Shown here piece by piece: positions 27,385-27,670 of a stretch of 46,437 nt of DNA. Where the stretch lies: IMG/VR virus record IMGVR_UViG_2925903241_000005, positions 1 through 46,437 of that record. One strand, given 5' to 3'. The translations under genes and the position numbers were made by a program. The DNA is from a virus (taxonomy: Duplodnaviria > Heunggongvirae > Uroviricota > Caudoviricetes). A model generated the notes under the pieces. The model searched no databases. It saw only the letters and a program-made list of their open reading frames with translations, and had not been told where the DNA came from. Positions within the stretch are counted from its first letter, which is position 1, and every line of letters starts with the position of its first letter.

Positions 27385-27670
27385 ATCATAACGTCCGGTT
27401 TCTTCCGTGCCAGAACCGGACTCGCTGGCATGATGAAATATGTGTACCCGGTAACCCCGGTGTGCATCGTTTTTGATTATTCCCACACACTCGCGCAGAA
27501 GGAGTTCCCCGTCGGGCTACGGTCTCTGTTAATACGGGAATACGGCGACGATACAGCGCATGATGTGTCAGGCTTGAATACCTTTATCCTTTAAAAGGGA
27601 TATCAGTTAAGTTATCCCGTGTAGGGTATAAGCCATTATCAAGCCCACCCGTAGATAGGCTTTGTAATGG

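Follow-up and report, generated by a model that had tools for sequence, protein, structure and literature searches.

A gap of 286 bp between the 3' ends of two convergent genes (positions 27385–27670, from the ORF listing) in a lambdoid E. coli prophage is non-coding. Its left two-thirds (about 27393–27583) are a copy of an element, hairpin-rich and conserved among lambdoid phages, in which stem sequences change while pairing is kept, and which is apparently an undescribed candidate RNA structure of the phage late transcript. We propose that the gap is a composite, in which the element would act in cis as a structure in late mRNA and a terminator would occupy the right end. This account is held tentatively, at somewhat less than an even chance.

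The gap and its genomic setting

The window, by which we mean the whole stretch of 46,437 nucleotides analysed, is a lambdoid E. coli prophage in the orientation opposite to the lambda map (Table 1). The preliminary description, which had reported a gap of about 285 bp free of ORFs of at least 60 aa on either strand, was confirmed: the longest ORFs touching the gap are of 54 aa on the plus strand and 50 aa on the minus strand (27334–27486). RefSeq/PGAP annotates no feature in the gap in genomes with a 100% identical copy, and none is marked in the corresponding spacer of the lambda or K-12 records, nor in the other annotated records examined. A gap of this length is nothing unusual at a convergent junction; it is the conservation that goes beyond chance. 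The cos region is placed between ylcI and Nu1, and a lambda cos-like sequence, CGCGGGTTTTCGCTATTTATGAAAATTTTCC, is found near 26440–26480. A near-perfect inverted repeat (AGAAAGGAAACGACAG ... CTGTCGTTTCCTTTCT, 26315–26381) lies just upstream of Nu1; it gave spurious Rfam microRNA matches, and we take it to resemble the inverted terminase-binding R sites of cosB.

Table 1. Genes, ORFs and structural features in and around the gap. For the hairpins of the element, the strand is the one suggested to fold.
Feature	Position	Strand	Sequence or assignment	Basis or remark
Holin, endolysin and Rz genes	29509 down to 28270	-		
KilA-N gene, C-terminal part	28248–27925	-		
85-aa gene	27671–27928	- (late-operon orientation)	phrog_875	flank of gap
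Long stable hairpin	27631–27672			inverted-repeat search; begins in TAG stop codon of 85-aa gene
Two related palindromic units	27584–27631		TTATCCTTTAAAAGGGATA, TATCCCGTGTAGGGTATAA	inverted-repeat search, alignments, context table
P7, small hairpin	27570–27583	-	AGGC..(G/A)CCT	by eye from alignments, unscored
Branched core hairpin	27464–27554	-		RNAalifold, inverted-repeat search
P3	27464–27470/27548–27554	-	GCATCGT/ACGATAC	closes core
P4	27478–27487/27533–27542	-	TATTCCCGCA/TGCGGGAATA	closes core
P5, inner helix	27494–27498/27517–27521	-		
P6, inner helix	27506–27508/27514–27516	-		
HP2, short here	27448–27460	-	CCGG/CCGG	alignments
54-aa ORF	27430–27594	+		'hypothetical protein' in a few records
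HP1, 8-bp hairpin	27393–27421	-	GTCCGGTT/AACCGGAC	inverted-repeat search
ybcV-like gene	26959–27384	+	DUF1398, lambdap78 homologue	other flank of gap
ylcI-like gene	26684–26917	+	DUF3950	
Nu1	26295–25750	-		
Terminase A	25775–23850	-		

The gap had been placed in the position where lambda carries bor, and this is right in outline. Nucleotides 1–176 of the gap (27385–27560) align with lambda 47042–46869 at 81% identity, in the 289-bp spacer that runs from the stop codon of lambdap78 (ybcV-like) to the start of bor, and they also align with the borD–ybcV spacer of the DLP12 prophage of K-12. Both the lambda spacer (NC_001416 46753–47041), where the matching stretch has the same position after the ybcV-like stop codon, and the K-12 spacer (NC_000913 578894–579183) are direct homologues with the same HP1, P3 and P4. 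They differ from the window in running on into a bor-proximal part of 116 bp and then into bor. The window has lost both, and in their place it carries a different module of 110 bp and convergent minus-strand genes. Lambdap78 itself (NC_001416 47042–47575; L006 2043–2576), the ybcV/DUF1398 homologue, is labelled 'head protein' in RefSeq and PHROG 413, which looks like an annotation artefact: it is a moron gene outside the head module.

A degraded bor had been considered for the gap, and translated and nucleotide searches find no remnant of it. With the Bor proteins of lambda, BL21 and ev110, tblastn gave a best E value of about 0.2 over the whole window and of at least 1.3 in the gap; blastn (word size 7) with lambda bor and the proximal 116 bp upstream gave chance matches of at most 24 nt, none of them in the gap. 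In lambda those 116 bp carry the direct repeat TGTTTA-GGGTT-TGTTTA (TGTTTA-N5-TGTTTA), which we take to be the PhoP box of borD. In the window, the place of bor is taken on the opposite strand by a 5'-truncated KilA-N gene together with the 85-aa gene; bor and its promoter are gone, and the exchange for these minus-strand genes is a clean one. A literature search returned nothing usable on borD or ybcV sRNAs, on the lambda transcriptome over the spacer, or on PhoP control of borD.

The two replacing genes have features of their own. Homology of the KilA-N gene to the full 498-bp gene of a close prophage (L001 4541–5038) ends at 28271, exactly at the Rz stop codon, with about 530 bp replaced by 186 bp, and the remaining 107-aa ORF (27925–28271 region) retains the ORF11CD3 domain only. 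The 85-aa protein has no Pfam domain and a tail rich in lysine and alanine. Its E. coli prophage copies share 98% identity with that of Salmonella phage S135, whereas the core element beside its gene is only about 80% identical in S135; protein and element therefore have different histories.

A promoter for the plus-strand ylcI-like and ybcV-like genes had also been suggested for this position. The gap lies downstream of both genes and therefore cannot be their promoter. A promoter scan found no plus-strand promoter-like site in the gap and a single weak site (9/12) on the minus strand; over the scanned region the sites were at chance level (5 found vs 3.9 ± 2.1 expected). By eye, no convincing internal sigma-70 promoter was seen inside the core on either strand.

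The preliminary description had named a short conserved ORF as an observation that would speak against it, and the 54-aa ORF does not turn out to be one. A small protein made from it (58 aa in some prophages, where it is annotated as WP_001205130.1) is hardly credible, even though the frame is unbroken both in this window and in the most common variant, and a few records list it. The frame is interrupted by an in-frame TAG and 1-nt indels in lambda and K-12, by a 10-nt deletion in Stx2a phages, and by an in-frame TAA after 10–11 codons in O157/BL21-type copies; altogether 16 of the 65 versions have a premature stop or a frameshift in the core frame. Variable columns number 16/29, 9/28 and 11/28 at codon positions 1, 2 and 3, the opposite of a coding pattern, with no third-position bias, and no Pfam or PHROG family matches the ORF. 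The annotated 'hypothetical protein' of 54–58 aa is thus probably a false gene.

Hairpins, covariation and the folded strand

The alignment of the element was built from 120 viral contigs with a conserved 25-mer pattern, together with E. coli and phage loci, and comprises 66 distinct versions. The first hairpin, HP1, starts 9 nt past the stop codon of ybcV. Its loop is conserved (TTTCTTCC on the plus strand, GGAAGAAA on the minus strand), and its stem occurs in coupled variants (TCCGGT/ACCGGA, TCCTGT/ACAGGA and CTCGAT/ATCGAG), with double changes in 5 of 7 pairs. HP2 is a 5-bp hairpin in relatives, where its sequence has been replaced and the pairing kept (CCGCG/CGCGG, CAGC/GCTG, CACGT/ACGTG, TCTC/GAGA); in the CM-based alignment all five of its pairs show double changes. 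The branched core is closed by P3 and P4. P4, one arm of which reads TATTCCCGGA in lambda, exchanges CG for GC in lambda-type copies and carries three double changes in Salmonella phage S135. The unpaired stretches of the core, GTTAAT and ATCGTTTTTGATTA, are highly conserved, and a number of unpaired stretches show no variation in any of the 66 versions. P7 is common to the contexts without bor, the Stx2a copy having AGGC/GCCT where the window has AGG/CCT.

Two further observations concern the HP1 loop. It was considered as a Chi site and rejected: the minus-strand versions GATGGTGG, GGGGGTGG and GGTGGTGG are all different from the Chi octamer GCTGGTGG (for context see PMC12315714). Two loci (L049 6474–6664 and L058 1974–2164) have C/G runs of at least 10 where other copies have CCACCCCC or ACAAACCC, in the HP1 loop and the HP2 flank; these are either contig sequencing errors or slippage-prone tracts.

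For both strands, scoring used a common set of 37 pairs. Read on the minus strand, 94.8% of the cells are paired, 14 pairs have changes on both sides and the covariation score is 0.154; the plus strand gives 90.0%, 12 pairs and 0.073. On neither strand did any of 500 shuffles, which ignore relatedness, reach the observed number of double-change pairs or the observed covariation score. Slid-partner controls paired in 30–62% of cells on the minus strand and 29–42% on the plus strand. The CM-based alignment raises the number of pairs with double changes to 17. Compensatory changes therefore stand above the controls at 14–17 pairs, a count that rests on few independent events because sequence diversity is narrow.

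In P3–P5, 98–99% of cells are paired on the minus strand vs 85–93% on the plus strand. Among stem cells that depart from Watson-Crick pairing, most read C.A or A.C on the plus strand, equivalent to G.U on the minus strand (201 cells vs 24 variable G.T), and 13 pair positions have a wobble of the minus type vs 6 of the plus type. These patterns are suggestive of the minus strand, the sense of the late operon, as the strand that folds. That the element is transcribed in this direction we infer from its position inside the late operon.

It may instead be the plus-strand RNA that folds, as the 3' UTR of ylcI/ybcV with its terminator (possibly the source of a 3'-UTR-derived sRNA) or as a distal upstream part of the regulatory region of bor. 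Points in its favour are that HP1 starts close to a stop codon, that of ybcV here and that of ylcI in other prophages; that bor is the next gene on the same strand in the loci of lambda, K-12 and the BL21 type; that three U.G pairs (92/188, 100/177, 135/146), all invariant, exist on the plus strand only; and that the terminal hairpin described below has a U-rich plus-strand tail. We nevertheless consider it distinctly unlikely. In two prophages (L005, L026) the element is complete without ylcI, ybcV or bor and no plus-strand gene lies upstream; pairing and covariation are both lower on the plus strand; and no U-tract follows HP1, HP2 or the core on that strand. An intrinsic terminator after any of these three was in fact rejected on both strands, there being no suitable U-tract. 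The A-run that follows HP2 on the plus strand is the T-run ahead of it on the minus strand, and so falls on the wrong side on both.

Distribution and synteny of the element

The gap is matched at least in part in 3464 of 5426 complete E. coli genomes and over at least 80% of its length in only 925 of them. The gap is a mosaic. Its most widespread core is nucleotides 69–176, and the element at 27393–27560 is about 81% identical to lambda 46869–47042. Nucleotides 199–286 form a different module, which also occurs in HK022, HK106, mEpX1, phiv205-1 and Salmonella phages. The covariance model finds exactly one copy of the element in the window and no copy in HK022 or phiv205-1. Copies of the element were found in E. 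coli/Shigella, in E. albertii and in a single lineage of Salmonella phages only: a scan of genome contigs returned only E. coli, E. albertii and lambda-DNA contaminants in unrelated taxa, and a protein search with Nu1 yielded few non-Escherichia enterobacterial phages worth comparing. The contaminant copies (L134–L167) carry the lambda version, on contigs either about 3.5 kb or about 48.5 kb long, in assemblies assigned to Pseudomonas, Cohnella, Flavobacterium, Vibrio, Saprospiraceae and others; they look like lambda control DNA from a sequencing spike-in and not like real homologues.

In all of about 125 loci, the element has a single orientation and a place between the lysis cassette and cos/terS, with the small-terminase gene always on the minus strand on one side of it. 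Three unrelated types of small terminase occur in that place. On the other side the neighbour is bor (plus strand), Rha, the 85-aa gene or a 50-aa gene (all minus strand), or Rz itself. Accessory genes are inserted on either side: bor, Rha, KilA-N with the 85-aa gene, or the 50-aa gene on the lysis side, and ylcI and ybcV on the cos side. The minimal layout, free of morons, is Rz stop codon, element, cos and terS (L026; also L005). The element marks a constant point of the phage backbone: the last gene of the lysis region precedes it, cos and the small-terminase gene follow it, and morons have been inserted to either side.

The same arrangement bears on a reading in which the element is a relic linker without a function of its own, kept by shared recent ancestry and re-used as a recombination crossover, its hairpins being incidental or old terminators. 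Several observations are in keeping with it. Different modules stand on both flanks, as expected for a mosaic junction, and Red/Rad52-type recombinases exchange exactly this region between lambda and DLP12 (PMC3945230). The folding energy of the whole element (27388–27592) is no better than that of shuffled sequence (z +0.20 on the minus strand, -0.44 on the plus strand). The 81% identity of the element between window and lambda is only moderately better than the 73.5% at third codon positions of the neighbouring ybcV, that is, conservation is only modestly above that of synonymous sites. The host range is narrow as well. A relic is harder to reconcile with the compensatory double changes in HP1, HP2 and P4, which include the replacement of the whole HP2 stem and the three coupled changes in S135, with the far lower scores of the slid-partner controls, and with unpaired stretches that are invariant in every version. 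The relic reading is therefore placed on the unlikely side, without being negligible.

A site that works as DNA is a further alternative. It could contain binding sites for a protein of phage or host (the RHH-like YlcI, for instance, or a KilA-N/Rha regulator) or serve as an accessory packaging or recombination signal near cos. The element adjoins cos in the minimal layout, the gap contains several palindromes, including the two related units at its right, and blocks of sequence are invariant. Minimal lambda cos fragments of a few hundred bp, however, are packaged without the region of the element. The distance from the element to cos ranges from about 0.02 to 1.5 kb, varying with the insertion of ylcI/ybcV; the stem sequences change with pairing kept; and the strand-asymmetric substitutions of the G.U type are unexpected for duplex DNA. 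A DNA-level site is accordingly judged improbable.

The right end of the gap and the proposed role

To the right of the element, the two palindromic units read TATCC-N7-GGGATA (27584–27602) and TATCCC-N4-GGGTATA (27613–27631). This module is common only to prophages in which the 85-aa or the 50-aa gene is the neighbour, and the units could be putative protein-binding sites or two further RNA hairpins.

The hairpin at 27631–27672 is of another kind. It has a stable, G+C-rich stem, as expected of a terminator, with a folding energy of -25.2 kcal/mol on the minus strand (z -6.1) and -17.5 kcal/mol on the plus strand (z -3.3), and its homologues have z values of -4 to -8. It is also found in HK022, HK106, mEpX1 and Salmonella phages. 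The stem covaries, as AAGCCCA/TGGGCTT, AAAGCCACTC/GAGTGGCTTT and GAGACCACTC/..GGTCTC. The plus-strand tail, CUUCGCUUUUGCUUCUG, is U-rich and interrupted, and the minus-strand tail, UAUACCCU, is weak; a simple terminator scan missed the hairpin because the stem is long and the U-tract interrupted. The simplest reading at a convergent junction is that it is a likely terminator, and it is put forward as a candidate bidirectional one. It would stop the plus-strand ylcI/ybcV transcripts and also unmodified minus-strand transcripts, and Q-modified polymerase would read through it in lytic growth.

Morons have been defined as genes flanked by their own promoter and terminator (Juhala et al. 2000, as cited in PMC4104026). 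By that definition as cited, the terminal hairpin, directly behind the 85-aa gene, occupies the expected place of a moron terminator, and interchangeable accessory genes flank the element as they would at moron boundaries. The conserved element differs from such boundaries in belonging to no one moron and in persisting when all of them are absent.

A small RNA had been proposed for the gap, and this suggestion holds in part. A conserved, covarying structured element is indeed present. A free-standing sRNA gene is a different matter: the scans found no promoter-like or terminator-like site bounding the conserved core, the sequence on the lysis side of the core varies between contexts, and no Rfam family was recovered. 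Rfam 15 gave no match at the gathering score over the whole window, and at E values up to 10 the region 26300–28800 gave spurious eukaryotic matches only, all outside the gap. Since the favoured strand is that of the late operon, the element looks like a cis element of a long mRNA, and a separate sRNA gene would not be the favoured reading.

The prophage sRNAs of pathogenic E. coli were also compared. AgvB, AsxR, Esr41, STnc100 and the Pas RNAs lie downstream of pR'/Q (PMC4104026; bioRxiv 10.64898/2026.05.13.724894), and 24B_1 of phi24B adjoins lom (PMC4426718). Like the element, they are non-coding and occupy moron-type positions in lambdoid prophages; unlike it, they are 50–100 nt long with ends of their own, lie near pR'/Q or lom, and have no similarity to it. 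As candidates for the gap they were rejected: AgvB, AsxR and the Pas RNAs are located in the Q–S region and are dissimilar to it, and 24B_1 shares no sequence with it. The Rfam models of AgvB, AsxR, Esr41, STnc100, IpeX and DicF gave no match here.

We therefore return to the folded late mRNA as the preferred account. The late pR' transcript is the only one expected across the element in all layouts, and the minus strand pairs better; from these two points we infer a role in late mRNA. The element would be a folded, cis-acting segment of this transcript (the minus strand of the window), such as a site of RNA processing or a barrier to decay by which lysis mRNA would be kept apart from head-gene mRNA. 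In having several stable hairpins in an untranslated stretch between translated blocks of an operon, it is similar to RNase III sites and REP-like decay barriers of long bacterial or phage mRNAs, and its long P3–P4 stem has internal loops. The likeness would be a functional analogy only; there is no sequence relationship to either. Lambda remains viable with cassettes inserted in bor or ybcV (PMC11879866, PMC3945230). A strict distance from the neighbouring genes is therefore unneeded, and it is doubtful that the element is essential.

A bolder version of this account would give lambda and most lambdoid prophages a structured RNA domain, as yet undescribed and about 170–200 nt long, in the untranslated part of the late transcript that separates the lysis genes from cos; it would have a specific job and serve as a fixed landmark for the insertion of morons such as bor, ylcI and ybcV. 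We regard this as possible and doubtful. The job could be one such as that of a processing site or decay barrier setting the ratio of lysis to morphogenesis expression, or of a binding platform for a host or phage factor.

If the element is only a relic of recombination, the finding is an ordinary one. For prophage annotation, the element is a sharp synteny marker of the boundary between lysis and packaging. If the proposed role is true, it would help to explain why bor, ylcI/ybcV, Rha and KilA-N cassettes always land at the same two spots, and it would offer a way into the partitioning or stabilisation of the 25-kb late transcript. Should the element work as RNA, a conserved non-coding structure would have gone unannotated even in lambda, within a region usually dismissed as accessory.
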